Shown: positions 12,698-63,850, numbered from the stretch's first letter. The stretch is 63,850 nt of DNA from Gemmiger sp. (GCA_963629755.1 CAVGKH010000001.1:1-63850), one strand, 5' to 3'. Program-made: numbers and translations. Notes: a model not told the origin generated them from the letters alone.

Positions 12698-12744
12698 ATC
12701 TCCTGATTTTTGGTTCCGATTTTCAAATTCTTATTACACACCAA

Positions 12745-12778
12745 AGAACGGCCCGGAAAACCCAGGCCGTTCTTTTTT
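12745..12778. terminator. hairpin between abgT and the M20D pair
   Basis: Stem AGAACGGCCCGG AAAA CCCAGGCCGTTCT. The T-run is strong on the plus strand and only TTTGG on the coding (minus) strand. Confidence 0.45.
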
Positions 12779-12801
12779 ATCAGCATTGCGCCGATTTTTT
12801 A

Positions 12802-14352: not shown

Positions 14353-14668
14353 AGGAATTTCTCCTTTCTTTGCGGGGCCGCCTTTGGCTGTACGCCTGCG
14401 GCGGGCAATTTTGCGGCCCGGGGCCGCCCCCTATGCAGAGTGCAGGGCTTCCTAACTTCCCAGCGCTCTTTTTTCGCATTTAGCCAAAAGCTAAAAACGA
14501 AGTATACGAGTATTATAATATATTCTTTTACTCTGGTAAAGTACCTAAAGTAAAAAATTTTAATTTTTTATGAATAAAAAGATATTTATATCTGCATTTT
14601 GTCTTTTGCAGAAAAACATTTTTCTTGTTTTTTATAAATTCTTTTCTTAAATACTGCGTTAAAGTGCC

Positions 14669-14703
14669 AAAAAGCCGTACCTCTGATTTGCCAAAGGCAC
14701 GGC
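14669..14703 (-). terminator. intrinsic terminator of the riboswitch-controlled transport operon
   Basis: Minus strand GCCGTGCC..GGTACGGC stem followed by TTTTT. Confidence 0.65.
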
Positions 14704-14709
14704 TTTCGA

Positions 14710-15804
14710 TCATTCCAATATTCCCAGCTTCTGTGCCTCCTGCACAAGGCGACGGTTTTCCCGGTTCATTGCGCCGAAGGCGTGCTGTGGACACAGTACC
14801 TTTCGGCAGGTGCGCAGCACCTTGAGCGCTCTGTCTGCATCGGCCGCGCTCACCGGTTCAAAGGCCGGGGCTGTTATCACGCTGGCGGCCAGCGCTTTTG
14901 CCACCGGTGTTTCCACATCGTTTTCCGCCAGCACACCGGCTGCGAAGGGCACACCGCGGCGCTGCAGCTGTCGGTAAACCGGTATGCCAGCGCCCCCGCC
15001 GCCGATCACAAATACCTCGGGGCTGCCCTGCGGCGCTTCCAGCTCCAGGCTGCCAAACAGCGCATTATAGCTGCCGTGGGCCACTCCATACAGAGTTTCG
15101 ATATATTCCGGCGTAAAAATCTCCTCTGGCGTACCGCATTTATCAATATGGTCACCCGCAGCGCAAAGCACTTTATCTGAAATTTTCTGCGCCAGATCCA
15201 GCTCGTGCAGGGTCATGATCACAGTCATCTGCCGCTCTCGCACCAGTTCTTTTAAAATAGCCAGCAGCTCAAGCTTATGGCGGATATCCAAAAAAGAAGT
15301 AGGTTCGTCTAATATCAGCATCTCCGGCTCCTGGCAGAGTGCCCGGGCCAGCAGCACGCGCTGCTTCTGCCCGTCGCTGATCCGGTTGAACTGCCGCCCG
15401 GCCAGTTCGGCTGCGTGCACTTTTTGCAGCGCCGCATATACCTTTTCACGGTCAGCCGCGCTCAAAATGCCCAGGTGGCCGGTGTAGGGGTAACGCCCTG
15501 CGGCCGCCGCCTCAAAGCAGGTCATCAGCTCGGGGCGGCTGCGCTCGGTAAGCATTACCGCCATACGGCGGGCAGCCTCTTTTGCGTTCAGTTCGGCAAG
15601 GGTCTGCCCGTCCAGCACCGCGCGCCCGCCCAGCGGGGCCAGCTGCCGTGCAATGCTTTTCAGCAGCGTGGTTTTGCCTGCGCCGTTGGGGCCAATCAGC
15701 GTTACGATCTCACCTTTTTCAGCACAGAACTCCACCTCGCGCAGAACCGGCTTTTTGCCATAGCCGACTGACATTTTTTCCGTAAAAAACCATCGTTTTT
15801 CCAT
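14710..15804 (-). CDS. iron-siderophore/cobalamin-type ABC transporter ATP-binding protein with C-terminal extra domain
   Basis: Walker A GPNGAGKTT, LSGGQ-equivalent ISDGQKQR, Walker B ILDEPTSFLD. About 110 extra C-terminal residues. Confidence 0.8.
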   Translation of the reverse strand: MEKRWFFTEKMSVGYGKKPVLREVEFCAEKGEIVTLIGPNGAGKTTLLKSIARQLAPLGGRAVLDGQTLAELNAKEAARRMAVMLTERSRPELMTCFEAAAAGRYPYTGHLGILSAADREKVYAALQKVHAAELAGRQFNRISDGQKQRVLLARALCQEPEMLILDEPTSFLDIRHKLELLAILKELVRERQMTVIMTLHELDLAQKISDKVLCAAGDHIDKCGTPEEIFTPEYIETLYGVAHGSYNALFGSLELEAPQGSPEVFVIGGGGAGIPVYRQLQRRGVPFAAGVLAENDVETPVAKALAASVITAPAFEPVSAADADRALKVLRTCRKVLCPQHAFGAMNRENRRLVQEAQKLGILE

Positions 15805-15808
15805 CGGC

Positions 15809-16831
15809 TCAGCCCTCCTGCCCGGGTCGGCGCAGCATCATCCAGATCACGATCGGCGCGCCGAACACCGCCGTTACCGAGCTGATGCTCAGCTCGGTGG
15901 GCGCAAACAGAGTTCGCGCGACCAGATCGCAGCCCAGGCAGGCCGCGCTGCCGCCCAAAAAGCAGGCCGGCAGCAGCACCAGGGGCCGCCCGGTGCCAAA
16001 CAGGGCACGCATCAGCTGCGGCACTGCGATGCCCACAAAGCTGATAGGCCCCGCAAAGGCCGTAACGCAGGCCGAAAGCAGACTACTTACCAAAATCAGC
16101 GCCGCACGAAAGGCCCGTACATTCACGCCCAGGCCCGCCGCAGCACTTTCGCCCAGGCGGTAGGCATTCATGGGCTTTGCCAGCGCCAGGCAGGCCAGAA
16201 ATCCCGCTGCCGCCACCAGCGCCATCACGCGCACTCCGCCCCAGCTCATGCCGGAAAAGCTGCCCAGCGACCAGTTATGCAGATTCACGATGTTGGAGTC
16301 CTCGGCGAAGGTCACGGCAAAATCTGTAATGGCCGAGCAGATATACCCGATCATTACGCCGCCCACGATCAGCTGGCTCATGCGCCGAATTCGCACTGAG
16401 AGCAGCAAAATAAACCCGGTAGCGGCCAGCGCGCCCAAAAAGGCTGCTCCGATCATGCCCCACGAGCCCAGGGTCACGCCGCGCCCCAGCAAAAAGATCA
16501 TGGTCATGGCCACAAACAGCTTGGCCCCCGAAGAAATGCCCAGCACAAACGGCCCGGCAATGGGGTTTGAAAAATAGGTTTGCAGCAGGTAGCCGCTCAC
16601 GGCAAGGCAGCCGCCCAGCAGCAGGGCTGCCAACGCGCGCGGCAGGCGGATGGTGCGCACAATGCCCTCGGCCAGCGCATTTTTGCCCGGTGAAAGCAGT
16701 GCCTGCACTACCTCGGCGGGCGTAAGGCTCACGCTGCCCGCCCCAACACCGGCGGTAAACAGCGCCAGCACCGCCAAAATAAGCGCCGCAAAGCAAACGC
16801 CCCAGCGAAGCGCATCGTGTGTTTGTTCCAT
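15809..16831 (-). CDS. FecCD/BtuC family ABC permease
   Basis: 340 aa, about 9-10 TM helices. Motifs GAGSVSL and TIRLPRALAALLLG. Confidence 0.85.
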   Translation of the reverse strand: MEQTHDALRWGVCFAALILAVLALFTAGVGAGSVSLTPAEVVQALLSPGKNALAEGIVRTIRLPRALAALLLGGCLAVSGYLLQTYFSNPIAGPFVLGISSGAKLFVAMTMIFLLGRGVTLGSWGMIGAAFLGALAATGFILLLSVRIRRMSQLIVGGVMIGYICSAITDFAVTFAEDSNIVNLHNWSLGSFSGMSWGGVRVMALVAAAGFLACLALAKPMNAYRLGESAAAGLGVNVRAFRAALILVSSLLSACVTAFAGPISFVGIAVPQLMRALFGTGRPLVLLPACFLGGSAACLGCDLVARTLFAPTELSISSVTAVFGAPIVIWMMLRRPGQEG

Positions 16832-16836
16832 ACTGC

Positions 16837-17979
16837 TTATCCTTCCAGCTTATACAAATACTTTCCCTCGGTAAAATCCGGGTCAGAAAGCATGGTGTGC
16901 ACATCTACCAGAAAATCGGCCATGCTCATGGTTTCCTGAAAAAAGTTTTTGCCCGTGCAATACACGTGCCCGGCCTTTACGGCATCAAAATCGGCCAGCA
17001 CCGCGCTTTTCTGCAAAAGCTCGCCGATTGAATGCACCTCGCCGTCGATCGTGCTGTTATAAATCAGATAGTCGGCATCTTTAGCCGCTGCGTAAAACTG
17101 CTCCATCTGAACGGTCATGGTCGAGCGGGCGCTTTCATCGCCGTCGTCCAGGGCCAGATAGCTGCCGCCTGCCATTTCGATCATGCGGGCGATATAGTCG
17201 CTGTGTCGCCGCACATTTACTGTCCCGCTTGAGGTAATGTAGAAAAACGCTGCCGTGCCGCCCGCAGCGGGCTGCGAAAGCACCGGCTCTATCTCGGCCA
17301 GCTTTTCGGCATAAAGCTTTTCCGCTTCGGGCAATTTGCCCAGCAAAAGGCCGTACAGCTTGATCCACTCCATACGGCCCAGAGGGCTGCTCTCATAGCT
17401 CGAGCGCTCTACCAGCACCGGAATGCCCAGGCGCTCCAGCTGCTCTTTCACCTCGGGGGAATGCAGGATCATCGTGGATTCTATTGCTGCGCCGCATCCG
17501 CCCTGCAAAAGCTGCTCATAATCCGGTGCACTGTATTTGCCTGCAAAAGCGATCTGCCCGCTTTGCAGGGCCTCTTTCGCCTCGGGGATATACCACCCCT
17601 CGGCGTTCGTGCCCGAATAGGCAATACTGCCAAGGCCCTCTAACGAAACAAAAAAATCCATGGCACTGGTAGCGGCCAGATACGCATTTTCAATCGGTGT
17701 TTCGATCACGGTCATATCCTCGGGCAGACCGCTCGGCACGCATTCGCCGCGCGGGCACAAAAGATATTCACTGTCACCGATCATCAGCTGCGTATAGCCG
17801 CCCTCGAACTGGCGGGCCGAGAATTCATCGGTATATTCCAGCGGCACCTCGCCGGTTTCGGCAAGGCTATCCCAGGCGGGCGCCGCGGTCTGGCTGGCCG
17901 AGCTTTCGGCCGGGGCCGCCGCACAGCCTGCCAAGGCCAGCGCCAGCACCGCCGAAAGCAGCGCTTTTACTCTTTTCAC
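16837..17979 (-). CDS. BtuF/FhuD-type periplasmic-binding-protein lipoprotein
   Basis: Signal peptide with lipobox LALAGC. Class III SBP-like body. Sits directly upstream of the permease. Confidence 0.75.
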   Translation of the reverse strand: MKRVKALLSAVLALALAGCAAAPAESSASQTAAPAWDSLAETGEVPLEYTDEFSARQFEGGYTQLMIGDSEYLLCPRGECVPSGLPEDMTVIETPIENAYLAATSAMDFFVSLEGLGSIAYSGTNAEGWYIPEAKEALQSGQIAFAGKYSAPDYEQLLQGGCGAAIESTMILHSPEVKEQLERLGIPVLVERSSYESSPLGRMEWIKLYGLLLGKLPEAEKLYAEKLAEIEPVLSQPAAGGTAAFFYITSSGTVNVRRHSDYIARMIEMAGGSYLALDDGDESARSTMTVQMEQFYAAAKDADYLIYNSTIDGEVHSIGELLQKSAVLADFDAVKAGHVYCTGKNFFQETMSMADFLVDVHTMLSDPDFTEGKYLYKLEG

Positions 17980-18833
17980 TGCATTGCCTCAGGGTTTGTG
18001 AAGGTCAGTGTATAGTCAATCATGTGCGGTTGGCTCATGGCCGTGGTCTCTGCCTGCACCGGCAGTGCGGTGTTCATCGCGCTCACTGGGATCTCAAATA
18101 CAGAAAGATCGTTCTCATAAGCAGGTGTGTACTCGGTGCCGTTTACGATCATCAAATCGTAGTTTTTGCTGCTCCAAATGATCTTCGCAGTCATTTCGCC
18201 GTTTTCCACGGTCAAGGCTGCCGGGCTCTGCACGCTAGCGCGGCCGCTGCCGCCCTCCAGCGCCACCTCCACGGTATAGCTGCCATCGGCCAGAGCCTCG
18301 CTTTCGGCAGAATCGTCTGCCAGGGGCTGCGGGTCGGTCACGCTTACCTTGTGGTCGTACCAGGTGCCCTTTTTGCCCACCAGCGCCACATCAATCTCGG
18401 TGTCCAGTGCGGGCACAGGCACGGTAAAGGCATACACCTCATCGGTGGTGCCGTCGCTGTAATCCACAGTGTCGGTCACGGGTTCCAGCAGTTCTGCGCC
18501 TTCCTTCTGGGCCTGTTCAGCCGTGCCGGGGTACAGGTTCAGAATGCCCTTGCCTGCCAGCTTGATATAAATGCTCATCTGGCCGTTTTCCACGGTCAGA
18601 ACGCCCCGGCCCTCGCAAGCCTCGTTTACACGGAACATCGTGCTGTCGGTATCAAACTCGGCGCTGTACACGCCGTCAGGCAAAGCGGCCTCGTTTTCAC
18701 TGGCTGTGCTCTCGCTGGCCGGTGCGCTGACCTCTTCCACGCTTTCACTTACGGAAGAAGCCGCACTGCTGACGCAGCCCGCCAGGCTGGCAGCCAGTGC
18801 AGCCGCACACAAAACAGAAATTATTTTTTTCAT
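17976..18833 (-). CDS. lipoprotein with two tandem beta-rich domains, function unknown
   Basis: MKKIISVLCAAALAASLAGC lipobox. Internal repeat: DGVYSAEF..LTVENGQMSIYIKL and DGSYTVEV..LTVENGEMTAKIIW. ATGA overlap with the SBP gene. Confidence 0.6.
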   Translation of the reverse strand: MKKIISVLCAAALAASLAGCVSSAASSVSESVEEVSAPASESTASENEAALPDGVYSAEFDTDSTMFRVNEACEGRGVLTVENGQMSIYIKLAGKGILNLYPGTAEQAQKEGAELLEPVTDTVDYSDGTTDEVYAFTVPVPALDTEIDVALVGKKGTWYDHKVSVTDPQPLADDSAESEALADGSYTVEVALEGGSGRASVQSPAALTVENGEMTAKIIWSSKNYDLMIVNGTEYTPAYENDLSVFEIPVSAMNTALPVQAETTAMSQPHMIDYTLTFTNPEAMQ

Positions 18834-20291: not shown

Positions 20292-20384
20292 ACAAAAATA
20301 AGCCCTTTTCACGGCTATGCTTTTTTTGCCTGCCCGCCAAGCTTCGTGGCTTTTGGGTACTGCTTTCTGCACCCGCAGCAGCGA

Positions 20385-20572
20385 CACGGCAGGTTTCCTG
20401 GCTTACGGATCAAACGCTGTGCACCGGCCTTCCCAAAAGCATATGCCTTCAGTGGCACAGGTGATGCCCAGCTTTCCGCTTACAGTGACGAGATCGTACG
20501 GGGTTTTCACCCGTTTCCCTTTTACCCGCAGCCTCACGCCTTCCGGCGGGTTTTGGCAGCGGCACCGCCCGC
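20385..20572 (-). promoter_or_regulatory. cobalamin (B12) riboswitch aptamer
   Basis: Minus strand reads GGTGCC, GGTAAAAGGGAAACGGGTGAAAACCCCG, CGTCACTGTAAGCGG, GCCACTG, TGGGAAGGCCGG and the B12 box AAGCCAGGAAACCTGCC (20389-20405). Confidence 0.85.
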
Positions 20573-20592
20573 AAAATTGAATACCAACGCAT

Positions 20593-25964: not shown

Positions 25965-26027
25965 TAATTGAGATTTGTATGCCCTCGGTCGAATGGGCAC
26001 TCTGTAAGGGCTGCGCCAACCCCCGCT
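25965..26027 (+). repeat. truncated copy (D) of the nested-hairpin repeat family
   Basis: AATTGAGATTTGTATGCCCTCGGTCGAATGGGCAC aligns with the left end of copy B (AATTGGGGTTTGTGTTCCCCAGGTCGAACGGGCAC). The following TCTGTAAGGGCTGC matches copy A. Confidence 0.65.
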
Positions 26028-39943: not shown

Positions 39944-39967
39944 CAAGCATTTTTGAAAGGAGCCCCT

Positions 39968-40834
39968 ATGCACTATTCCGGCGATGTTTTCCGCCCGCCC
40001 AGCGAAGCCTACAGCCTGATCTTACAGGTCACGCTTGGCTGCAGCCATAACCGCTGTGCGTTCTGCTATATGTACAAGGCCAAAAAATTCTCGATTCGCC
40101 CTTTAAAAGAGGTGTTTGAGGATATTGAAGAGGCCGCGCCCTACCGTTTTCGCCGCGTATTTCTGGCCGATGGCGATGCCCTGATCTTACCCACCGAAAC
40201 ACTGGTAGAGATCCTTACCCGCATTCGCAAGCGTATTCCCACCTGCCAGCGCGTGGGCGTATACGGCTCACCCAACAGCATTCTGCGCAAGACCCCCGAG
40301 GAACTGGAAATGCTGCGCAAGCTAGGCCTTGGCATCGTGTATATGGGCCTGGAAAGCGGCAATGACGGGGTGCTGAAAAAGTTTGACAAGGGCTTTGATG
40401 CCGCGCACATCATTGAGGCCGGCAAGCGCGTAAAGGCTGCCGGGCTGCTTTTGAGTGTTACGGCCATTAACGGCCTGGGCGGCCAGGCCATGAGCGAGGC
40501 CCATGCGCTGGATACCGCCAAGGCCTTTACCGCCATGAAGCCGGATTATGTGGGCATGCTCACCCTGCGCGTTTACGGCAACACCCCGCTGGCCGGGTGG
40601 GTGCGCAGCGGCGAATTCAAACTGCTGGACGGGCCCATTGCCCTGGCGCGTGAAAACCGACTGCTGATTGAAAATATGGACTGCGAGGGAACGGTTTTCC
40701 GCTCGAACCACGCCAGCAACTATCTGGCGCTGGCCGGTACACTGAACAAAGATAAGCCCCGCCTGCTGGCACAGCTGGATGCCGCCCTGGAGGGCAAGCG
40801 CCGCTTCCGCAGCGAGGTACAGCTGGGATTTTGA
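39968..40834 (+). CDS. radical SAM domain protein with atypical Cx4Cx2C motif
   Basis: 288 aa from ATG 39968 (GAAAGGAG RBS). GCSHNRCAFCYMY at 40040-40066. GLESG-type and downstream TIM-barrel motifs. Confidence 0.7.
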   Translation: MHYSGDVFRPPSEAYSLILQVTLGCSHNRCAFCYMYKAKKFSIRPLKEVFEDIEEAAPYRFRRVFLADGDALILPTETLVEILTRIRKRIPTCQRVGVYGSPNSILRKTPEELEMLRKLGLGIVYMGLESGNDGVLKKFDKGFDAAHIIEAGKRVKAAGLLLSVTAINGLGGQAMSEAHALDTAKAFTAMKPDYVGMLTLRVYGNTPLAGWVRSGEFKLLDGPIALARENRLLIENMDCEGTVFRSNHASNYLALAGTLNKDKPRLLAQLDAALEGKRRFRSEVQLGF

Positions 40835-40856
40835 TTTTTTAAGATCGAGATCTGTG

Positions 40857-41057
40857 CATTTGGGGCCGAATGGGCACGATGTGGTTGGTTACAGCCCGGC
40901 TTTGACCAAATGTTTCTTTAATGTGCAGTGCTCATTCTAAAAAAAGCAGCACTCTGTAAGCACTGCCCCCTTGTGCCGAGGAGCTCTTGGCCACAGGTCA
41001 GCCGTGACGAGGTATAAGGGGGGCAGTGCGAACGGTGCCGCAAGCTGATTTAAATTT
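40857..41057 (+). repeat. nested-hairpin repeat family, copy A (about 200 bp)
   Basis: Hairpin 1 GAATGGGCAC (40868) / GTGCTCATTC (40928). Hairpin 2 GCACTGCCCCCTT (40960) / AAGGGGGGCAGTGC (41016). Its loop GTGCCGAGGAGCTCTTGGCC..CCGTGACGAGGTAT is shared with copy B. Confidence 0.75.
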
Positions 41058-41094
41058 ACCATTTTGTTTTCTCGAAAAGAGGCTGTAAAAGTTT

Positions 41095-41499
41095 ATGGAT
41101 TATGAATCGCTGCGCCAATGGGCCAACCAGGCCAGCCCATTTATGATGCACAACGGCATTCTGATCACCGATGTGGCCGACGGCTGTGCCACGGCCTCGG
41201 CCGATATGAGCCGTTTGGCGCAGAACCCTTACGGCGCGGCGCACGGCGGCTTTTTGTTTACCATGGCCGACTGCGCCACCGGCGTGGCTGTACATACCGA
41301 CAGCCGCCATTATGTTACCTTGAATTCTAACCTGAATTTTATGCGCATGGCCAAAGAGGGCACCGTTACCGCCGATGCCCGGGTGGTCAAGCGCGGGCAG
41401 ACCGTTTCGGTGGCCGAGGTCGTAATCACCTGCTGCGGGCAGGAGCTTGCCAGTGGCACCTTTACTTACTTCTGCCTGGATGCGCAGAGTAAAAAGTAA
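41095..41499 (+). CDS. PaaI family (hotdog-fold) thioesterase
   Basis: 134 aa. AHGGFLFTMADCATG motif. Confidence 0.75.
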   Translation: MDYESLRQWANQASPFMMHNGILITDVADGCATASADMSRLAQNPYGAAHGGFLFTMADCATGVAVHTDSRHYVTLNSNLNFMRMAKEGTVTADARVVKRGQTVSVAEVVITCCGQELASGTFTYFCLDAQSKK

Positions 41500-41534
41500 C
41501 CTTTTAGAAAGTTTTTAGTAATATAAAATAAAAA

Positions 41535-41582
41535 GTCATTGCATACTGCCGATTTTTGGCATATGCAATGGCTTTTATTTTT
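41535..41582. terminator. bidirectional intrinsic terminator
   Basis: About 15-bp stem GTCATTGCATACTGCC/GGCATATGCAATGGC flanked by A-run and T-run. Confidence 0.75.
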
Positions 41583-41629
41583 ATAATTTTGCACTTATTC
41601 CCGGTTCGTTTATTTGTGCGCTATAAAGC

Positions 41630-42619
41630 TTACGGGCTTTTCGTTTTTTTGTTTTCACCCTCGTTTTCTGCCTGGGCAAAGCGGCACAAATAGCGAATGT
41701 ATCTTTGGGCCGCGTCGGGCAAAGGTCTGTCTTTTAAATAAATGTAATACAGCGAATGGTTGAACTGGCTGTGATCGGTGACCTCTGCGGGAAACGGAAA
41801 CGGCAGAATGCGTATGCCGAGCGCCGGCATCGGGCGGCCTTCCAACTGGTTGCCCAGGGCAATATAGTCGGTATCGCGCAGCACATCGTGCATGATAGAG
41901 CGGTCAGCTATGCGCACCACCTGCTTAAAGCGGTCAAAATCCACAAGGTCGGGCAGAGAATAGCTGTTGTAAAAGCCGTCGGCAATGCCGTTCAGGTTTA
42001 CGCTGCTGCTGTTTTGCAGCACCACAAGATTGTAGTTATACAAATCTTCAAGCGTAAAATCCGGCTTATCAAACAAGGGGTGCCCGCGCCGCAGCAATAT
42101 GTGCAGGCTGGTACCGAACGCCTTTTTATATTCAATATGCCGCCCTTTAAAGAATTCTGCATTGCCGGGGGCATGAATATCCTTTAAAAAGAGCACACCC
42201 AAATCAGAGCGGTGGTTATAGACCGAGTCGATCACGCCCGTCGCATTTTTTTCTTTATAACTGTAGCGCAGGTTCTTGCCGGGCATATCGCGCAGCATAT
42301 TGGTAAACGCCGCCACCGAATACGAGCAGGGCGAGCTTACCACGCGCAGTGTGCTTACCGGCGCGTTTTGATGAAAAGCGTTTTCAAACTCATCGGCCTG
42401 GGCTACCAGGTCTTTTGCCATTTCTAAAAACATGCGGCCGTTTTCGGTAAGGGTGAGGCCGCGCTTATCGCGTATGAAAAGGGTAATGTGATATTCCTGC
42501 TCGGTATCGTGCAGCACCCGGCTTAAATAAGACTGCGAAACATATAATTTCTGTGCGGCCGCCGAAAGTGAGCCGCAGCGCTCGATCTCGGTAAGATAGC
42601 GAAGATTGCGGATATTCAT
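41630..42619 (-). CDS. LysR family transcriptional regulator
   Basis: 329 aa from ATG 42619 (MNIRNLRYLTEIERCGSLSAAAQKLYVSQSYLSR HTH). Divergent from pxpA. Confidence 0.8.
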   Translation of the reverse strand: MNIRNLRYLTEIERCGSLSAAAQKLYVSQSYLSRVLHDTEQEYHITLFIRDKRGLTLTENGRMFLEMAKDLVAQADEFENAFHQNAPVSTLRVVSSPCSYSVAAFTNMLRDMPGKNLRYSYKEKNATGVIDSVYNHRSDLGVLFLKDIHAPGNAEFFKGRHIEYKKAFGTSLHILLRRGHPLFDKPDFTLEDLYNYNLVVLQNSSSVNLNGIADGFYNSYSLPDLVDFDRFKQVVRIADRSIMHDVLRDTDYIALGNQLEGRPMPALGIRILPFPFPAEVTDHSQFNHSLYYIYLKDRPLPDAAQRYIRYLCRFAQAENEGENKKTKSP

Positions 42620-42659
42620 ATAAAGCTTCCTTTGCGTGCTCTTTGCAGGCACTCTATTA

Positions 42660-42673
42660 TAACCAAATGGTTA
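42660..42673. promoter_or_regulatory. perfect palindrome TAACCA-AA-TGGTTA (candidate LysR box)
   Basis: 14-bp inverted repeat, T-N12-A type, just upstream of the lysR start. Confidence 0.4.
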
Positions 42674-42827
42674 AGCATGCTTCCAAAACAGGAATTGGAC
42701 ATATGTTACAAAACATGCTATAAACATGGTAACAGGGCCAATATAAACGGTTTTAATGGCAGCATTTTAGTCTTTTCTGTTAAAATTGTCAATCCCTGCT
42801 TGGCCGCATCTTTTTTCTATTAGAACC

Positions 42828-42887
42828 AAACAGTGAATATGCTTTATTCCAAAAAGCATTTTAGCCCAAGCGCTTTATTCACTGTTT
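42828..42887 (+). promoter_or_regulatory. 12-bp perfect inverted repeat framing the pxpA leader
   Basis: AAACAGTGAATA (42828-42839) and TATTCACTGTTT (42876-42887), ending 10 nt before the pxpA RBS. Confidence 0.45.
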
Positions 42888-42909
42888 AAAGAGAAAGGGG
42901 AAATTGAAT

Positions 42910-43677
42910 ATGTATAAGGTAGATCTGAACAGCGATCTGGGTGAAAGCTTCGGCGCATACAAAATCGGTTTGGATGATGAAGTTGTCAAATATGTCACTT
43001 CGGTCAATGTGGCCTGCGGCTATCACGCCGGAGACCCGGTTGTAATGAACAAAACCGTTGCCATGGCCAAAGAGCATGGCGTGGCAGTGGGCGCACACCC
43101 CGGCTTCCCTGATCTGATGGGGTTTGGCCGCCGCAACATGGTGGTTTCCCCCGCTGAGGCCAAGGCTTACACCCAGTATCAGGTAGGTGCACTGAGCGCT
43201 TTCTGCAAGGCCAACGGCATTCCCCTGCAGCATGTAAAGCCGCACGGCGCTTTTTATAACATGGCCGCCAAGGATATGGCCCTGGCAACCGCCATTGCCG
43301 AGGGCGTTGCCTCGGTAAACAGCGATCTGATCTTTATGGGCCTGGCGGGAAGCCTGATGCTCACCGCCGCCAAAAATGCCGGTCTGCGCACCGCCAGCGA
43401 GGTATTCGCCGACCGTGCTTACCAGGCCGACGGCACGCTGGTGCCCCGCTCAAAGCCCGGTGCTGTGATCCATGATACCGATGTAGCCATTGCCCGCACC
43501 ATCCGCATGGTAAAAGAAGGCAAGGTGACCGCCATCACCGGCGAAGAGGTAGAGATCGCCGCCGACTCCATCTGCGTGCACGGCGACAATGTTTCGGCTG
43601 TGGAATTTGTAAAGAATATCCGTGCCCGGCTGGAGGCTGAGGGCGTGACCCTGGCCCCCCTGAGCGAGATCGTATAA
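42910..43677 (+). CDS. pxpA: 5-oxoprolinase subunit A (LamB/YcsF family)
   Basis: 255 aa. [11 protein letters not shown] and [11 protein letters not shown] motifs. Confidence 0.85.
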
Positions 43678-43794
43678 CCCAGTATTTTTTGGTTTACCCG
43701 TGCACGGGTTTGTGGAATTTCCCGTGCGCGGTTATAAAAACCGGCAGCAGTGCAAAGCCCTTGCATTGCCGCCCCGAAGAAGGAGTCTTGCCTT

Positions 43795-45021
43795 ATGAGT
43801 AACAACACGACCCCCGCCGCCAAGCCGAGCCGCTCGGTCATGTTTGGCGCAGCCTTTCTGATGGCTACTTCGGCCATCGGCCCCGGATTTTTGACCCAGA
43901 CCTCCAAATTCACTGCCACCTACGGCAGCAGCCTGATCTCGGTGATCCTGGTAGTCATCTGCATGGATATCATCGCCCAGATGAATATCTGGTCGGTGGT
44001 AAGCGTTTCGGGCATGCGCGCACAGGATGTTGCCAACAAGGTGCTGCCTGGCCTTGGCTATGTGGTAGCCGTTCTGGTAGCCATCGGCGGCCTGGCCTTT
44101 AACATTGGCAATGTGGGCGGCGTGGCCCTGGGCATGAACGCCATGTTCGGCTTGAACGAGCGCTTGGGCGCTATCGTTGCAGGCTGCCTTGGCATTCTGA
44201 TCTTCGTAAACAAAAACGCAAAAACCATTATGGATAAGGTCGCCACCATTCTGGCTGCCATCATTCTGATCACCGTAGCTGTTGTGGCCGTTATGTCTAA
44301 GCCTTCTGTGGGTGAAGTAGTCACCAAGATCATCCCCGATGATTTCCCGAGCATGTTTGCAGCCATGACCACCCTGCTGGGCGGCAGCTGCGGCGGCTAT
44401 ATTGCCTTCTCGGGTGCACACCGCCTGCTGGATGCCGGTGTTTCCGGCCCCGAAAATGTGGGCCATGTGCGCAAGAGCGTACTGCAGGGCTGCGGCACCT
44501 CCGGCATTGTTCGTATCCTGATGTTCCTGGCTGTTCTGGGCACCTGCGGCCTGGCTGCCGATAACGCCGCCACCATTCTGGCTGCCTCCAACCCCGCTGC
44601 CGAGGCCTTCCGCCTGGCTGCTGGCAACCTGGGCTACCGTTTGTTCGGCCTGTGCCTGTTCAGCGCCGGTATCTCTTCTGTTGTGGGCGCTGCCTTTACC
44701 TCGGTTTCTTTCCTCAAGACTCTGCACCCCTTTATTGCCAAGTATGAGCGCCAGTTCGTGATTGGCTTCATCGCTTTCTCCACGCTGGTCATGGCCATTA
44801 TGGGCGGCGCTGCCGGCCTGCTGGTGGTTGCCGGTGCCGTGAATGGTCTGATTTTGCCCATCACTCTGGGCACCATGCTGGCCGCCTGCCGCAACAAGAG
44901 CATCGTGGGCGAAAACTACAAGCACCCCACCATTCTCATCATTCTGGGCATTCTGGTCGCTCTGATCGCCGCCTACACTGGCATCAAGGCTGTGCCCAGC
45001 ATTATGAAGCTGTTTGCATAA
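43795..45021 (+). CDS. NRAMP-like membrane transporter (YcsG-like)
   Basis: 408 aa from ATG 43795 (GAAGGAG RBS), 11-12 TM helices. Same position as ycsG in the Bacillus ycsF-ycsG-ycsI-kipI-kipA arrangement. Confidence 0.65.
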   Translation: MSNNTTPAAKPSRSVMFGAAFLMATSAIGPGFLTQTSKFTATYGSSLISVILVVICMDIIAQMNIWSVVSVSGMRAQDVANKVLPGLGYVVAVLVAIGGLAFNIGNVGGVALGMNAMFGLNERLGAIVAGCLGILIFVNKNAKTIMDKVATILAAIILITVAVVAVMSKPSVGEVVTKIIPDDFPSMFAAMTTLLGGSCGGYIAFSGAHRLLDAGVSGPENVGHVRKSVLQGCGTSGIVRILMFLAVLGTCGLAADNAATILAASNPAAEAFRLAAGNLGYRLFGLCLFSAGISSVVGAAFTSVSFLKTLHPFIAKYERQFVIGFIAFSTLVMAIMGGAAGLLVVAGAVNGLILPITLGTMLAACRNKSIVGENYKHPTILIILGILVALIAAYTGIKAVPSIMKLFA

Positions 45022-45071
45022 TGCAGATTTAAAAATTCGTTATTCCTTTCTTTCTTGATTTTGTATTCCGG

Positions 45072-45096
45072 CCCCCGCCCAACTGGGCGGGGGTTT
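45072..45096 (+). terminator. GC hairpin between ycsG-like gene and pxpB (attenuator or partial terminator)
   Basis: CCCCCGCCC AACT GGGCGGGGG followed by only TTT. Confidence 0.4.
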
Positions 45097-45114
45097 GGAG
45101 AAAGGGAAGCTTTT

Positions 45115-45849
45115 ATGGAATCCATTCGCTTTTTAATGGCCGGTGATTCGGCCTTGGTCGCGGAGTTCGGCAATGCCATCACTCCCGAGATCAACGCCCG
45201 TATCCGCGCCTTCAACATTGCGCTTGAGCAGCAAAAGTTGCCCGGCATCATCGAGTTGCTACCCACCTACCGCTCGGTGCTGATCCAGTATGACCCTATG
45301 GTCATCGGCACAGAAAGCTTAAAGGCAAAGCTTTCTAAAATTGCCGAAAACCTTGATAACATCGTTATTCCTCCCGCACAGGTGGTGGAGCTACCGGTTT
45401 TGTACGGCGGCGAGATGGGCCCCGACCTTGGCTTTGTGGCCGAGCACGCCGGAATTACCCCCGAAGAGGTCATCAAGCTGCATACCGAGCCGGAATATCT
45501 GATCTACATGCTGGGCTTCACCCCCGGTTTTACCTATCTGGGCGGCCTGAATGATAAAATTCATACCCCGCGCCTTACACAGCCGCGCGTAAAAATCCCC
45601 GGCGGCTCGGTGGGCATTGCGAGCAGCCAGACCGGCGTATACCCCATCGACTCTCCCGGCGGCTGGCAGCTGATCGGCCGCACCCCGGTAAAAATGTACG
45701 ACCCCAACCGTGCCGAGCCCATTCTGCCGCGCGCGGGGCAGTATATCAAGTTCCGTGCCATCGATCAAGCCGAATTTGACAAGATCTCACAAGAGGTCGA
45801 GCAAGGCACTTATAAGTGTGTGAGCTACCCCAGAAAGGAGGCCGAATAA
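45115..45849 (+). CDS. pxpB: 5-oxoprolinase subunit B (KipI/allophanate hydrolase subunit 1 family)
   Basis: 244 aa from ATG 45115. GDSALVAEFG..INARI and GFTPGFTYLGGL motifs. Confidence 0.85.
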   Translation: MESIRFLMAGDSALVAEFGNAITPEINARIRAFNIALEQQKLPGIIELLPTYRSVLIQYDPMVIGTESLKAKLSKIAENLDNIVIPPAQVVELPVLYGGEMGPDLGFVAEHAGITPEEVIKLHTEPEYLIYMLGFTPGFTYLGGLNDKIHTPRLTQPRVKIPGGSVGIASSQTGVYPIDSPGGWQLIGRTPVKMYDPNRAEPILPRAGQYIKFRAIDQAEFDKISQEVEQGTYKCVSYPRKEAE

Positions 45850-45850
45850 T

Positions 45851-46798
45851 ATGAGCATCACCGTTTTGAATCCCGGCCTGCTCACTACCGTGCAGGATCA
45901 GGGCCGCTGGGGTTACCAGCAGTTCGGTGTGCCCGTTTCGGGCGCATGCGACCCACACTCGGCCGCCATGGCCAATATTTTTGTAAGCAACGACCCCGGC
46001 GAGGGCGTTTTGGAATGCACCCTGATGGGCCCGCAGCTGCGCTTTGACTGCGATGAAGTGATTGCCATTACCGGCGGCGATTTAAGCCCTAGCCTGGACG
46101 GGAAGCCCATTGCCACTTATGCCGCTGTAGAGGTAAAGGCTGGGCAGACCCTGCGCTTTGGCGCCCCCAAGGCCGGATGCCGCGCCTATCTGGCTGTGGC
46201 AGGCGGTTTTGGTATTTCCGAAGTGATGGGCAGTCAGTCTACCTACATGAAAGCTGCTCTTGGCGGCTTTGAGGGTCGCAAGCTTCAAAAGGGCGATGTG
46301 CTGGGGCTCAAGGCCCCTGTGGCTACCTTCAGCAACCTGCGCCAGCGCTGCATTTCGCCCGAGTTCCGCCCGCGCCCTGTATATACCCTGCGCGTGATCT
46401 TGGGCCCGCAGGACGATGCCTTTACCGAAAAGGGTATTGCCGACTTTTTGGGCAGCGAATACACTGTGACCCAGGAATTTGACCGCATGGGCTGCCGTAT
46501 GGAGGGCCCCGTGATCGAACACAAAAACGGCGGCGATATTATTTCTGACGGCATTGCCTTCGGCGCCATTCAGGTGCCTGGCGCAGGCAAGCCCATTTTG
46601 ATGCTAGCCGACCACCAGACCACCGGCGGCTACACTAAGATTGCCAATGTGATCACGGCCGATTTCCGTTTGGCCGGGCAGTTAAAAGGCGGCGACAAGG
46701 TGCACTTTGAAAAAGTAAGCACTGCCCAGGCACAGGAGCTTCTGCGCTGCCAGCGCGCCAGCCGCAAGCTGCTGGCCTATGTGGTAAACGCACACTGA
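45851..46798 (+). CDS. pxpC: 5-oxoprolinase subunit C (KipA/allophanate hydrolase subunit 2 family)
   Basis: 315 aa. GLLTTVQDQGRWGYQQFGVPVSGA and HQTTGGYTKIA motifs. Confidence 0.85.
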   Translation: MSITVLNPGLLTTVQDQGRWGYQQFGVPVSGACDPHSAAMANIFVSNDPGEGVLECTLMGPQLRFDCDEVIAITGGDLSPSLDGKPIATYAAVEVKAGQTLRFGAPKAGCRAYLAVAGGFGISEVMGSQSTYMKAALGGFEGRKLQKGDVLGLKAPVATFSNLRQRCISPEFRPRPVYTLRVILGPQDDAFTEKGIADFLGSEYTVTQEFDRMGCRMEGPVIEHKNGGDIISDGIAFGAIQVPGAGKPILMLADHQTTGGYTKIANVITADFRLAGQLKGGDKVHFEKVSTAQAQELLRCQRASRKLLAYVVNAH

Positions 46799-46808
46799 TT
46801 TTTCTTTG

Positions 46809-47161
46809 AAATTGGGGTTTGTGTTCCCCAGGTCGAACGGGCACCATGTGGTTCGTCACGGTTGGCCTTTGGCCAAATGTTCCTCACCGCATAGTGCCCG
46901 TTCTCAGATAAACCTGCGCAAAAATTTTATGCTTATTTGTAGGGGCTTGCATTGCAAGCCCGCTCACAAAGCACAGCATGTCGATAAAATAATACGAAAC
47001 GCCCTGGCTGGCCTGCAATGCAGGCCCCTACTGGCTCGTTTATAATGTTTCTGCAAAACCAAGGGCTGACCCCCTTGTGCCGAGGAACTCTTGGCCGAAC
47101 GGTCAACCCGTGACGAGGTATAAGGGGGTCAGCCCGAACGGCGTTGCCCAAACCCAAATTT
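46809..47161 (+). repeat. nested-hairpin repeat family, copy B (full length, about 353 bp)
   Basis: Terminal inverted repeat AAATTGGGGTTTG (46809) / CAAACCCAAATTT (47149). Hairpin 1 GAACGGGCAC (46835) / GTGCCCGTTC (46894). Hairpin 2 GGGCTGACCCCCTT (47063) / AAGGGGGTCAGCCC (47122). Confidence 0.8.
46939..47031. repeat. inverted pair of REP-like palindromes inside copy B
   Basis: GTAGGGGCTTGCATTGCAAGCCC (46939-46961) and, in reverse complement, GTAGGGGCCTGCATTGCAGGCC (47010-47031). Each is a self-complementary 7-8-bp hairpin. Confidence 0.7.
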
Positions 47162-47201
47162 TCCGATCTCTGTGATTCTATTATTAAGGAGGATATTCAC
47201 C

Positions 47202-48023
47202 ATGGCTTTTGATATCACCCCGTATATCCACGAAACCCCCGAAAAGGTTCGCCAGATCATTCGCGAGGGCAAGATTGATTTTCCCACGGCCGGTATGTGC
47301 GCCGGATATGCCCAGGCCAACCTGGTGATTCTGCCGCCCGAATACGCCGCCGATTTTGAAGAATATACCAAGCTGAACCCCTTCCCCTGCCCGGTGCTGG
47401 AGATCGTAAAAGATACCCCCATCACGCACGCCATGGGCGAGGGCGGCAATATTGTAACGGATATTCCCCGCTACCGTATTTATGAAAACGGCGTATTCAC
47501 CAAAGAAGTGACCGATGCCAGCGAATACTGGAAGCCCGGCTATGTGGGCTTTTTGATTGGCTGCAGCTTCAGCTTTGAAGAAGCGCTGATCCGCGAGGGC
47601 ATCGAGGTTCGCCACATCACCATGGGCTGCAATGTGCCCATGTTTAAAACCAACATTGCCACCAAGAAGGCCGGGCCTTTTGAGGGCCCCATGGTGGTGA
47701 GCATGCGCCCCATGACCCCCGAGCATGCCGAGATTGCACGCAAAATCACCGAGGCCATGCCCAATGTGCACGGCGCACCCGTAGAGATCGGCGACCCGGC
47801 CCGCATTGGCATCAAAGATGTGATGAAGCCCGATTACGGCGACCCTGTAGAGATCCGCGAAGGCGAGATCCCCGTATTCTGGCCCTGCGGCGTTACCCCG
47901 CAGGCTGCCATTGAAAATGCCAAGCTGCCCATCGTGATCACCCACGCGCCCGGCCATATGTTCATTACCAGCGTTTTGAACAGTGAGCTGAACGATTATC
48001 TGGAAGCACAGAAGAAAAAGTAA
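47202..48023 (+). CDS. DUF1445 family putative hydro-lyase (YcsI-like)
   Basis: 273 aa from ATG 47202 (AAGGAGG RBS). GMCAGYAQANLVILP motif. Confidence 0.75.
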   Translation: MAFDITPYIHETPEKVRQIIREGKIDFPTAGMCAGYAQANLVILPPEYAADFEEYTKLNPFPCPVLEIVKDTPITHAMGEGGNIVTDIPRYRIYENGVFTKEVTDASEYWKPGYVGFLIGCSFSFEEALIREGIEVRHITMGCNVPMFKTNIATKKAGPFEGPMVVSMRPMTPEHAEIARKITEAMPNVHGAPVEIGDPARIGIKDVMKPDYGDPVEIREGEIPVFWPCGVTPQAAIENAKLPIVITHAPGHMFITSVLNSELNDYLEAQKKK

Positions 48024-48035
48024 TTTTGTTTTCAC

Positions 48036-48075
48036 CGCCGCCCCTGCATGGTATACGCAGAGGCGGCGTTTTTTT
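48036..48075 (+). terminator. intrinsic terminator of the pxp cluster
   Basis: CGCCGCCCCTGC/GCAGAGGCGGCG stem followed by TTTTTTT. Confidence 0.8.
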
Positions 48076-48084
48076 GTTGTGCAT

Positions 48085-48208
48085 AAATTAGGGCTGTATG
48101 CAGCACCATTCGGGCAGACTCCCTTATGCCTCGTCACGGGTTGGCCGCAAGGCCAACCGTGACGAACCACATGGCGGCCATTTGCCCCTATACTCGCGCC
48201 CCCAATTT
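48085..48208 (-). repeat. nested-hairpin repeat family, copy C (compact, inverted, about 124 bp)
   Basis: Ends AAATTAGGGCTG (48085) / CCCCCAATTT (48199). Central hairpin GTCACGGGTTGGCC GCAA GGCCAACCGTGAC (48133-48163). The reverse complement aligns with both ends of copy B, with the inner ~200 nt missing. Confidence 0.75.
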
Positions 48209-48308
48209 TCCCTTATGCATCACAGAAATATCACTTTACATTTTCGGTTTGTACCGTTACAATGGCGGTATAGAACGCTTTTTATTTTTATACCAAGGAA
48301 CATATTTT

Positions 48309-48785
48309 ATGGAGCCTATTTTGCGCCAAACCATTCGTCAGCTGGCCCGTGAGGGCCGCTTTTCGCAGGAAAAGCAATATTTTCAGCATGGGCACACCAG
48401 CGTATATGCCCACAGCGTGCGTGTGGCGGCCTGCAGCTTAAAGCTGAGCCGCGCTCTGCGCTTAAAAACCGACCGCCGGGCCCTCGTGCGCGGCGCACTG
48501 CTGCACGATTATTTTTTGTACGATTGGCATGAATCCAGCGGCGGGCACCGCCTGCACGGATTTTTTCACCCCGGCCGCGCTCTGCGCAACGCCAGGCAGG
48601 ACTATGCGCTTTCTCCCCGTGAGGAAAACATTATCCATCGGCACATGTTTCCCCTAACGCCTATGCCGCCCACCACGCGCGAGGCGTGGCTGGTATGCCT
48701 GGCCGATAAATACTGCGCTGCTGCCGAAACCATGCAGCCGCTGAAAAAAAGCCGCCTGTTTCAAAAGTTAGCTTCTTACATGTAA
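48309..48785 (+). CDS. HD domain phosphohydrolase
   Basis: 158 aa from ATG 48309. HSVRVA .. LLHDYFLYDWH motifs. Confidence 0.65.
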   Translation: MEPILRQTIRQLAREGRFSQEKQYFQHGHTSVYAHSVRVAACSLKLSRALRLKTDRRALVRGALLHDYFLYDWHESSGGHRLHGFFHPGRALRNARQDYALSPREENIIHRHMFPLTPMPPTTREAWLVCLADKYCAAAETMQPLKKSRLFQKLASYM

Positions 48786-63158: not shown

Positions 63159-63722
63159 TTAAAAATGCTCCACTATTTCTTTCAGTTCTTTTAACCAGAG
63201 CGGCTCGCTGCCTCCTATTGTCAGCAGCTGACCGTTGCGCCATTCAGCTACTAAAGTAAAACCGTTATTATTATCAAAAAACTTGGCCTCATCACAGTAG
63301 GGCAAAATTTTTGCCGCATCTGCAAATCTACGTGCATAACGGCTGCGCACATCCTTTTCGGGTATATCATGCCCACCGCGCTCTACACGGTTTTTAATCC
63401 GCCACAGGCTTTCTTCTACCGAATCTAGCCCCACATAATACAGCCTGATATAATATCCGGCCTCTTTGGCACGGCGGCAGAGCCTTTTAGGGTATCCCCC
63501 CGAAAGTGTGGTTTCTTGTGTAAAATTCACACCGGCTGCCAGCGAACTTTCAATACGCTGCACAGCCATTTTGCCGCCCTCATACTCGTCACCGCCGCAC
63601 TGTGCGGTAAGCCGGTCAGGGTCGATTACCAACCCCAGATCCGTTCGTTCTGCGCGCAGCGAGCCTGCCAAACTGGATTTACCTGCCCCGTTTACACCGC
63701 CAATAAGTGTGTAGATTTTCAT
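63159..63722 (-). CDS. zeta-toxin-like P-loop kinase (COG4185-type predicted ATPase)
   Basis: 187 aa. Walker A GGVNGAGKSS. VIDPD..FTQETTLSG..YVGLDS..RV..GGHDIP layout of the zeta/AAA_33-type kinase fold. Confidence 0.55.
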   Translation of the reverse strand: MKIYTLIGGVNGAGKSSLAGSLRAERTDLGLVIDPDRLTAQCGGDEYEGGKMAVQRIESSLAAGVNFTQETTLSGGYPKRLCRRAKEAGYYIRLYYVGLDSVEESLWRIKNRVERGGHDIPEKDVRSRYARRFADAAKILPYCDEAKFFDNNNGFTLVAEWRNGQLLTIGGSEPLWLKELKEIVEHF

Positions 63723-63795: not shown

Positions 63796-63850
63796 TGGTG
63801 ACCCGTACGGGAATCGAACCCATGTTACAGCCGTGAAAGGGCCGTGTCTT
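63796..63850 (-). tRNA. tRNA-Glu (anticodon UUC), 3' part only, runs off the window
   Basis: Reverse complement reads ..AAGACACGGCCCTTTCACGGCTGTAACATGGGTTCGATTCCCGTACGGGTCACCA: anticodon loop CTTTCAC, T-loop TTCGATT, CCA end. Confidence 0.8.

Follow-up and report, generated by a model that had tools for sequence, protein, structure and literature searches.

Small mosaic palindromic repeats built from two inverted hairpin units at intergenic sites of a Gemmiger species

What kind of sequence is repeated between the genes of a Gemmiger sp. around its pxp-D-Glu cyclase operon? The window analyzed here, a stretch of 63,850 nt (64 kb) that we compared with overlapping strain contigs, holds four similar intergenic segments, referred to below as copies A, B, C, and D. 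An earlier note on this DNA had described them as a family resembling MITEs (miniature inverted-repeat transposable elements), and had read them as a DNA-level repeat, a reading that proved broadly right. Our results show that the element is a non-coding repeat restricted to its lineage and contains two inverted structured units, that the stems of these units are kept by compensation, that their core mismatches are kept as well, and that one locus has been rapidly rearranged. The repeats are best described as a new family of a known kind, that of small mosaic palindromic intergenic repeats.

The kinship of the four copies, proposed in the earlier note, goes well beyond chance. The 19-mer CCGTGACGAGGYATAAGGG was found three times in the window, at 41002 and 47108 on the plus strand and at 48121 on the minus strand, compared with 0.03 occurrences expected from shuffles. 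Pairwise blastn comparison of the copies gave E values between 1e-10 and 1e-17, and a repeat search of the window recovered A and B as a direct repeat and the pairs B/C and A/C as inverted repeats. Copy D was too short to be recovered by blastn-short alone. Its assignment as a truncated family member is nevertheless genuine: the left 35 nt of D share ~77% identity with the left end of B, and D holds an exact 17-mer, GCACTCTGTAAGGGCTG (25997-26013), that forms the junction between the linker and hairpin 2 of the site-B allele in contigs L001, L006, and L009 and has 2 mismatches to copy A. Four matches to this 17-mer were found at ≤3 mismatches; the chance expectation is ~0.3, and in 100 shuffles the count never rose to four.

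Copy A (40843..41057, plus strand) is a full element without insert. It lies between the radical-SAM (39953-40834) and thioesterase (41095-41499) genes, and the alignment puts its start near 40843 rather than at 40857, the left end first proposed. The full element, ~215 nt long in A and in the allele of contig L007, begins with an end consisting of AAATTGGGG and a further ~15 nt. Unit 1 comes next, followed by a linker that ends in GCACTCTGTAAG, an inverted unit 2, and a tail (CGAAYGG...CCCAAATTT). Copy B (46809..47161, plus strand) is likewise full but carries a nested insert; pxpC (45851-46798) lies on one side of it and the D-Glu cyclase gene (47202-48023) on the other. The reverse complement of hairpin 1 aligns with hairpin 2, indicating that both are a single ~70-nt unit, present once in each orientation. 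In A and B alike, R1, a covariance model derived from seven unit copies, matched hairpin 1 on the minus and hairpin 2 on the plus strand with 60-94 bits. The scores were 60.3 bits for A unit 1 (40868..40937) and 93.6 bits for B unit 1 (46835..46903), where the minus strand carries the G·A core, and 71.6 bits for A unit 2 (40960..41029) and 77.1 bits for B unit 2 (47063..47135) on the plus strand; both units of B also appear among the inverted repeats found in the window, and unit 2 folds in both copies. Scanning the window with R1 gave nothing else above 17.4 bits, and copy C scored just 15.9 bits, as a chimera of two unit halves should. The linker motif GCACTCTGTAAG, which lies directly 5' of unit 2 in A (40949..40960, plus strand), is common to A, D, and the alleles of L001, L006, L007, L009, and L091.

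On the strand that carries the G·A core, the unit opens with an outer stem of 10-13 bp, continues through a second stem of 5-7 bp into the core, and closes with the returning stems. The core has the form CC-GA-G-GA-AC-(2 nt)-TTGGCC-loop-GGYCAA-(2-3 nt)-GT-GA-C-GA-GG, in which two 5'-GA-3'/5'-GA-3' oppositions create tandem G·A mismatches with a single G-C pair between them; in A unit 2 it reads CC-GA-G-GA-GC..TTGGCC-loop-GGTCAG..GT-GA-C-GA-GG. The mismatched positions are unchanged in six of the seven unit copies, the exception being hairpin 1 of A, whose core is partly degenerate (AAAGAAAC / GTAACCA). In no copy have the tandem G·A mismatches been made complementary. The earlier reader had missed that hairpins 1 and 2 are a single unit inverted, that the unit has a near-invariant mismatched core, and that a GTAG-type doublet is nested in B (described below). 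These three features make repetitive extragenic palindromic (REP) elements, with the related bacterial interspersed mosaic elements (BIMEs) and REPINs, a closer analogue than a classical MITE bounded by terminal inverted repeats (TIRs).

The stems of the unit vary and stay paired. Between A and B, hairpin 2 shows the compensated changes that the earlier note had pointed out, C-G to G-C and A-T to G-C, and where B has an A-T pair, A has a bulged G. The same preservation of pairing by compensatory changes is seen across the seven unit copies. These represent two subtypes, and all covariation figures rest on them: 88% of the alignment cells are paired versus 76% in shuffles, and pairing falls to 29-44% when the register is slid. 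Changes on both sides were found in 11 of 18 outer-stem pairs, and the three inner-core pairs had no double changes, two of them never varying. The clearest case is unit 2 of the L007 site-B allele, which has a wholly different, fully paired 13-bp outer stem (GGGAAGAATGCCC / GGGCATTCTTCCC) around an unchanged core. Compared with shuffles, RNA folding of the whole elements gave z = -2.4 (A), -7.8 (B), and -4.7 (C), with the two ends of the element paired to each other, and single-stranded DNA (ssDNA) folding of the hairpins gave z values of -3.2 to -6.7, with stable structures on both strands.

Are these hairpins then selected as RNA? With RNA parameters, the G·A strand of the unit is favored, folding better than its complement by 11 kcal/mol in the case of unit 2, and in A and B alike, G·U pairs lie on the plus strand of hairpins 1 and 2. 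A and B are located inside runs of co-directional genes without an intervening terminator, and the symmetric plan of the element gives a transcript of either orientation one G·A-type and one pyrimidine-type hairpin. The hairpins could accordingly be mRNA stabilizers, processing sites, or protein-binding motifs in operons, with the double tandem G·A core as an RNA-protein recognition module and the spread of the repeat as incidental. We consider this improbable. When DNA parameters are used, both strands of the unit fold about equally well; the same operon is element-free in sister species; no Rfam family matched at E up to 10; and two of the four copies are placed where such a role is hard to see. 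Copy C follows a terminator-like hairpin that has a T-run (48036-48075) and precedes a promoter-like site (TTTACA-17-TACAAT, 48235-48263), and copy D (25965..26027, plus strand) lies in an 81-nt spacer between two minus-strand genes, antisense to their operon. Orientation differs among copies and even among strains at one site, which bears out the argument of the earlier note that its inconstancy speaks for a DNA-level repeat and not for a conserved sense-strand RNA motif.

The gene order around the copies is TetR-family regulator, radical-SAM enzyme, A, thioesterase, LysR regulator (minus strand), pxpA, Nramp transporter, pxpB, pxpC, and B, followed by D-Glu cyclase, the terminator-like hairpin, C, the promoter-like site, and an HD-domain protein. 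Where the thioesterase and LysR genes converge, there is an AT-rich inverted repeat of 24 nt (41522-41585, 88% complementary, 16-nt loop), probably a bidirectional terminator.

We then asked how the repeats behave among strains of the species, whose contigs have 95.4-97.8% nucleotide identity to the window, with one at 100%. The read set SRR13434649 contains a contig that matches part of the window at 100%. Sites A, B, and C were filled in every same-species strain examined. Site A is stable (95-100% identity; 95% in L001 and 100% in L091), and at site C we found an allele without the 34-nt hairpin tip, a deletion bounded by GGCC repeats. Site B is hypervariable, with the downstream 5' region and the encoded protein identical in all strains. 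The window has unit 1, an insert X, and unit 2 at this site; L006 has unit 1, a different insert Y, and unit 2; L001 is without unit 1 and has insert Y and unit 2; and in L007 the whole element is inverted and the unit-2 stem is different. The contigs L002-L005 and L010 start inside the element, and their gene-proximal end matches the inverted L007 allele.

The two orientations of site B, found in five contigs versus six with the same downstream sequence and protein, would be expected of an inverton, in which the TIRs are recombinase sites and the element flips to control the D-Glu cyclase gene. The details of the alleles make this very improbable. The orientations are not reverse complements of each other, as the unit-2 outer stem and 9 nt beside the terminal repeat are wholly different, and orientation follows strain clade (~95.4% versus 96-98% identity to the window). 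A recombinase gene was not seen nearby, nor was a convincing promoter in the invertible part. The gene-proximal end of the inverted allele is nearer to copy C than to the left end of B, and this C-like end on a non-complementary allele indicates that replacement or gene conversion from another copy is likelier than a simple flip.

The linker of copy B carries insert X (approximately 46920..47055, plus strand), ~140 extra nt that form an inverted doublet of GTAG and a GC-rich palindrome, with arms at 46939-46963 and 47007-47031 that are 88% complementary. Insert Y replaces X at the same linker position in L001 (~7115-7270), L006 (~1415-1570), and L009. Both doublets have the classical REP form, X consisting of GTAGGGGCTTGCATTGCAAGCC and its partner and Y of GTAGGGGCGGGGCTCTGCTCCGCCC and its partner. 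The GTAG feature, present as GTAGGGGC followed by a palindrome, is confined to these nested inserts; the main units are without a REP-type GTAG head, since GTAAG alone precedes unit 2 and nothing comparable precedes unit 1. Insert X is the one GTAG-type doublet in the window. These doublets may represent an extension of REP-like biology into Clostridia.

Two of the copies are reduced. Copy C (48085..48208, minus strand) is a single hybrid hairpin to which unit 1 contributes its 5' half and unit 2 its 3' half, with the apical TTGGCC/GGCCAA stem as the joint. The earlier note had equated it with B after removal of ~200 nt; C does have the architecture of B with the middle gone; the termini of the two copies differ, however, so that C does not derive directly from B. 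A deletion between the TTGGCC direct repeats at the two unit tips would produce such a structure. In the collapsed copy D both units are deleted. What is left of D is the left end with the initial 11 nt of unit 1, fused at a GCAC repeat to GCACTCTGTAAG and the opening bases of unit 2, and then a remnant of the tail. From this arrangement, D looks like the putative product of a GCAC-microrepeat fusion that removed unit 1 and of a second deletion that removed unit 2.

The features described so far have their closest parallels among the REP sequences. In Escherichia coli REPs, non-complementary stem bases are required for binding and cleavage by TnpA-REP, and BIMEs consist of two inverted REPs and a linker, with differences that keep complementarity and with loci that vary among strains (PMC3333891). 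Excision of REPINs, or loss of the segment between two REPs, leaves single long palindromes (PMC3337134). The present repeats resemble REP/BIME/REPIN elements in being intergenic, non-coding, and composed of two inverted palindromic units around a variable linker, in the stem differences that keep complementarity, in the conserved non-complementary positions, and in their strain-variable loci. Copy C resembles the long palindromes left by loss between units (PMC3337134), and insert X, GTAG with its palindrome, resembles a classical REP doublet. The family differs in the size of its units (~70 nt versus 30-40 nt), in main units without the GTAG head, in having TIRs of its own, and in its Gram-positive host, a member of the Oscillospiraceae. 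Abundant REPs go with groups 2 and 3 of the REP-associated tyrosine transposases (RAYTs) alone in a study that analyzed Escherichia and Pseudomonas for these two groups, and the RAYT group found in Clostridia behaves like an insertion sequence (IS) (PMC5581495).

The interpretation that we favor, and to which we give an even chance of being correct, is that these are lineage-restricted, non-coding, non-autonomous mosaic palindromic repeats that work like REP/BIME/REPIN elements. The unit would be a recognition structure for a trans-acting protein, read as an extruded or single-stranded hairpin. The recognizing factor would be encoded elsewhere in the genome, most plausibly as an enzyme of the HUH/Y1 type (RAYT or IS200-like) or else as some other ssDNA enzyme specific for hairpins, and the same factor would once have spread the elements to several intergenic sites of the species. 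Slippage or recombination between the two apical palindromes could have given rise to copy C, and slippage between GCAC or GGCC microrepeats to copy D and to the tip deletion at site C. Inversion, or replacement by another copy, might account for the site-B alleles, and a second, GTAG-type REP doublet would have been captured in the linker. Effects on flanking genes would be secondary. Hairpin recognition is favored because stem covariation combined with conserved non-complementary positions is the documented REP pattern, because BIMEs and REPINs share the arrangement of a unit, a linker, and the unit inverted, and because the hybrid palindrome C parallels the long palindromes left after inter-REP loss.

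Several observations weigh against this interpretation. No RAYT (Y1/HUH), IS200-like, or other candidate enzyme was present in the window regions examined. The four copies seen all lie within 22 kb (25965-48208) of one 64-kb window, and with sites A, B, and C filled in all strains examined, no recent transposition is documented. The unit measures ~70 nt and not 30-40 and is without the classical GTAG head, and the element has TIRs, which REPINs do not need and which point to a DDE-type MITE. Compensation in palindromes can also arise from arm-to-arm template switching without selection. Template switching alone, however, should have erased the G·A mismatches, and these were not erased.

To place the family more widely, we examined sister species and sequence collections. 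The host is an uncultured gut member of the Oscillospiraceae; the best genome match of its D-Glu cyclase reaches 86% at the protein level, and Flintibacter and Pseudoflavonifractor reach 83%. Sister species with 84-89% and 77-82% nucleotide identity keep the pxp-D-Glu cyclase operon, with an element-free site-B spacer of 59-108 nt compared with 404 nt in the window, and the family is absent upstream of the D-Glu cyclase gene both there and in 80 related genomes. Neither blastn nor R1 gave a match in 1.44 Mb of loci from these 80 genomes and 18 sister-lineage contigs. The hairpin-2 core pattern was not found in GTDB representative genomes or JGI metagenomes, nor the 19-mer CCGTGACGAGGYATAAGGG in IMG/VR, and blastn against plasmid and phage collections gave no match. 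A looser 19-mer in metagenomes and a unit-1 18-mer in IMG/VR gave isolated chance matches with dissimilar flanks. Rfam searches of the window at gathering thresholds and of 40700-48400 at E up to 10 returned chance snoRNA and miRNA models and nothing relevant, and a concatenated six-frame peptide query, aimed at spurious open reading frames (ORFs) across other copies, had no matches in a protein search. The family had no sequence similarity to any collection searched.

Two side observations concern the sister species. Copy C lies exactly at a synteny break (window 48024-48309 versus 10823-18327 of sister-species contig L093): after the D-Glu cyclase gene, the window has HD-domain, esterase (minus strand), ATP-grasp, and permease genes, and the sister species has an SNF transporter gene, with the permease/ATP-grasp/esterase block ~3.5 kb off and inverted. 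Gene order to the left of 41522-41585 is also unlike that of the sister species. In addition, sister-species contig L092 carries an unrelated indel element of ~172 nt (~10953-11124) downstream of the D-Glu cyclase gene, with TIRs AGGCAATACCGCATAATTC / GAATTGTGCGGTGTTGCCT. It is also present in L093 and L094, which carry a further nested insert of ~113 nt, and absent from L097 and L099, and it looks like an active MITE-like family in the neighboring lineage.

These comparisons bear on the main rival explanation, that the family is a MITE of the classical TIR type, derived from some IS by internal deletion. A DDE transposase would then bind double-stranded DNA at the cores (GAGGAAC..TTGGCC-N-GGCCAA..CGTGACGA), which are inverted subterminally, and the ~95-nt end would be a long inverted repeat. 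Copy B has the TIRs AAATTGGGGTTTG / CAAACCCAAATTT, and equivalent ends of the form AAATTKGGG(TTTG) occur in C and the L007 allele; the core is oppositely oriented at the two ends, as transposase-binding sites would be, and TIRs with opposed asymmetric cores fit a DDE-type MITE as well as they fit the interpretation that we favor. The flanks are A/T-rich, the element is absent from sister species, and the clearly TIR-bounded indel element carried by those species indicates that such elements are active in the group. The terminal repeats proposed by the earlier note hold for B, C, and the L007 allele but are degenerate in A and D, and as AAATTT is self-reverse-complementary, the "TIR" tips could equally be remnants of a target site. 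A target-site duplication was recognizable at no copy, and the four copies have no direct repeat in common in their flanks. Sister species offer no clean empty site for comparison, since their spacers cannot be aligned. No parent IS or similar sequence was found in plasmids, phages, IMG/VR, GTDB representatives, or JGI metagenomes. Binding to double-stranded DNA would also leave the outer-stem covariation and the conserved mismatches unexplained. We regard a classical MITE as possible but unlikely. Of the label "MITE-like," what stands is a non-coding, TIR-ended DNA repeat; a MITE in the strict sense is conjectural, as no target duplication or parent IS was found in the sequences searched, nor presence/absence polymorphism among strains of the species. 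In agreement with the earlier note, there was no transposase nearby, either among the Pfam annotations of the overlapping contigs L001 and L091 or among ten further window ORFs scanned.

The small number of copies raises another question, whether the family was ever mobile. A palindromic intergenic sequence might have been copied a few times within 22 kb by local duplication, perhaps in the course of the rearrangements from which the locus arose, and then have decayed. The four copies lie between 25965 and 48208, three of them within 7.4 kb, with no others in the window according to R1; copy C coincides with the synteny break relative to sister species; and an empty site was seen in no strain examined. 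Nevertheless, the copies occupy unrelated intergenic sites with flanks that have no homology, and at site B the strains of 95% identity carry an allele whose unit-2 outer stem is unseen in A-D, which points to donor copies elsewhere. In addition, the Logan short-read contigs L002, L003, L004, L005, L008, and L010, which come from several independent samples, begin inside the unit core (e.g. at CGTGACGAACCACATGG), implying that the repeat breaks assemblies. These breaks suggest further copies, a pattern that strain mixtures could also give. Overall, we find local duplication without mobility quite doubtful.

How, then, does the family compare with other small bacterial repeats? The Correia elements of Neisseria and the RUP elements of pneumococcus duplicate TA. 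The present repeat has no recognizable target-site duplication, and no parent IS was found for it in our searches; moreover, each half of it contains a structured unit whose mismatched core is conserved, a feature not known from the Correia, RUP, and ERIC families. It resembles these bacterial MITEs (Correia, RUP, and ERIC/IRU of enterobacteria), as generally known and as described in PMC3184786, in its size of ~120-350 nt, its TIRs and long hairpins, and its occurrence in either orientation between genes, as well as in its lineage restriction and in size variants that arise from deletions or insertions at fixed positions. NTS/dRS3 sequences of Neisseria and others are hairpin repeats of ~30 nt that Ssn nucleases encoded elsewhere recognize as ssDNA (PMC11893778). 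Like them, the present family has short hairpin repeats with an oriented non-palindromic flank, clustered around particular genes, an analogy that applies to mechanism alone; it differs from them in sequence and size, and no ssn-like gene turned up, although no search was aimed at one. Pneumococcal BOX elements are modular mosaics in which the terminal modules pair and the internal modules vary or are lost, giving nested hairpins of different lengths. This modular plan with nested hairpins is shared; however, BOX has tandem direct boxB modules between boxA and boxC, in place of the inverted unit copies seen here, and the sequences are unrelated. We therefore cannot file the family under REP/BIME/REPIN, MITE, or BOX.

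Several other identities were considered and rejected. A riboswitch or other cis-regulatory leader RNA is at odds with the absence of the element at orthologous genes across species, its inversion in some strains, and the lack of an Rfam match. For a remnant of a group II intron or a known IS, there was no Rfam intron match (E up to 10) and no blastn match among plasmids and phages. An integron attC site was discarded because the R''/R' consensus and an integrase are absent and the orientation is mixed. IS200/IS605-type elements have subterminal hairpins in the same orientation, and those of the present repeat are inverted. The unit is not a kink-turn, as the 3-nt bulge is absent, nor an intrinsic terminator, as no T-run follows the units. 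An alternative three-way fold of unit 2, obtained with DNA parameters, was unsupported in the unit-1 copies.

Elsewhere in the window, a cobalamin riboswitch (20371-20580, minus strand; 94.7 bits, E 2.7e-22) adjoins an apparent cobalamin biosynthesis region, with CbiD annotated on L091. Near the end of the window, a zeta-toxin-like ORF (63159-63722, minus strand; PF06414, E 5.7e-09), with a third-position GC of 0.47 compared with ~0.7 elsewhere, adjoins a tRNA gene (63799-63850, minus strand) that is cut by the window end; a mobile island may have its edge here. Two blocks of direct repeats (102 and 258 nt), at 10879-11352 and 12066-12539, lie exactly 1187 nt apart and are 73-79% identical; they are probably two tandem paralogous genes.

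What would the finding mean? If REP-like functioning is the correct interpretation, Oscillospiraceae, a poorly characterized and mostly uncultured gut group, would have a structurally distinctive family of small palindromic repeats, and such repeats would be hot spots of strain-level rearrangement, as at site B, where strains 95-98% identical differ by inversion, stem replacement, unit loss, and nested insertion. In practical terms, the repeats break short-read assemblies and could possibly serve as strain markers. A bolder extension, which we consider unlikely, is that the units are substrates of a domesticated hairpin-specific ssDNA enzyme (RAYT-like, Ssn-like, or other) in a Gram-positive gut anaerobe. 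This would amount to a REPIN-type partnership in Clostridia with a new recognition module, a 70-nt hairpin with two tandem G·A mismatches, coexisting with a GTAG doublet family that inserts into its linker. To our knowledge, no REPIN-type partnership of repeat and enzyme has been described in Clostridia. Judged by its conservation among the aligned copies, the uncorrected double G·A core offers a testable candidate for the site that a trans-acting protein would recognize.

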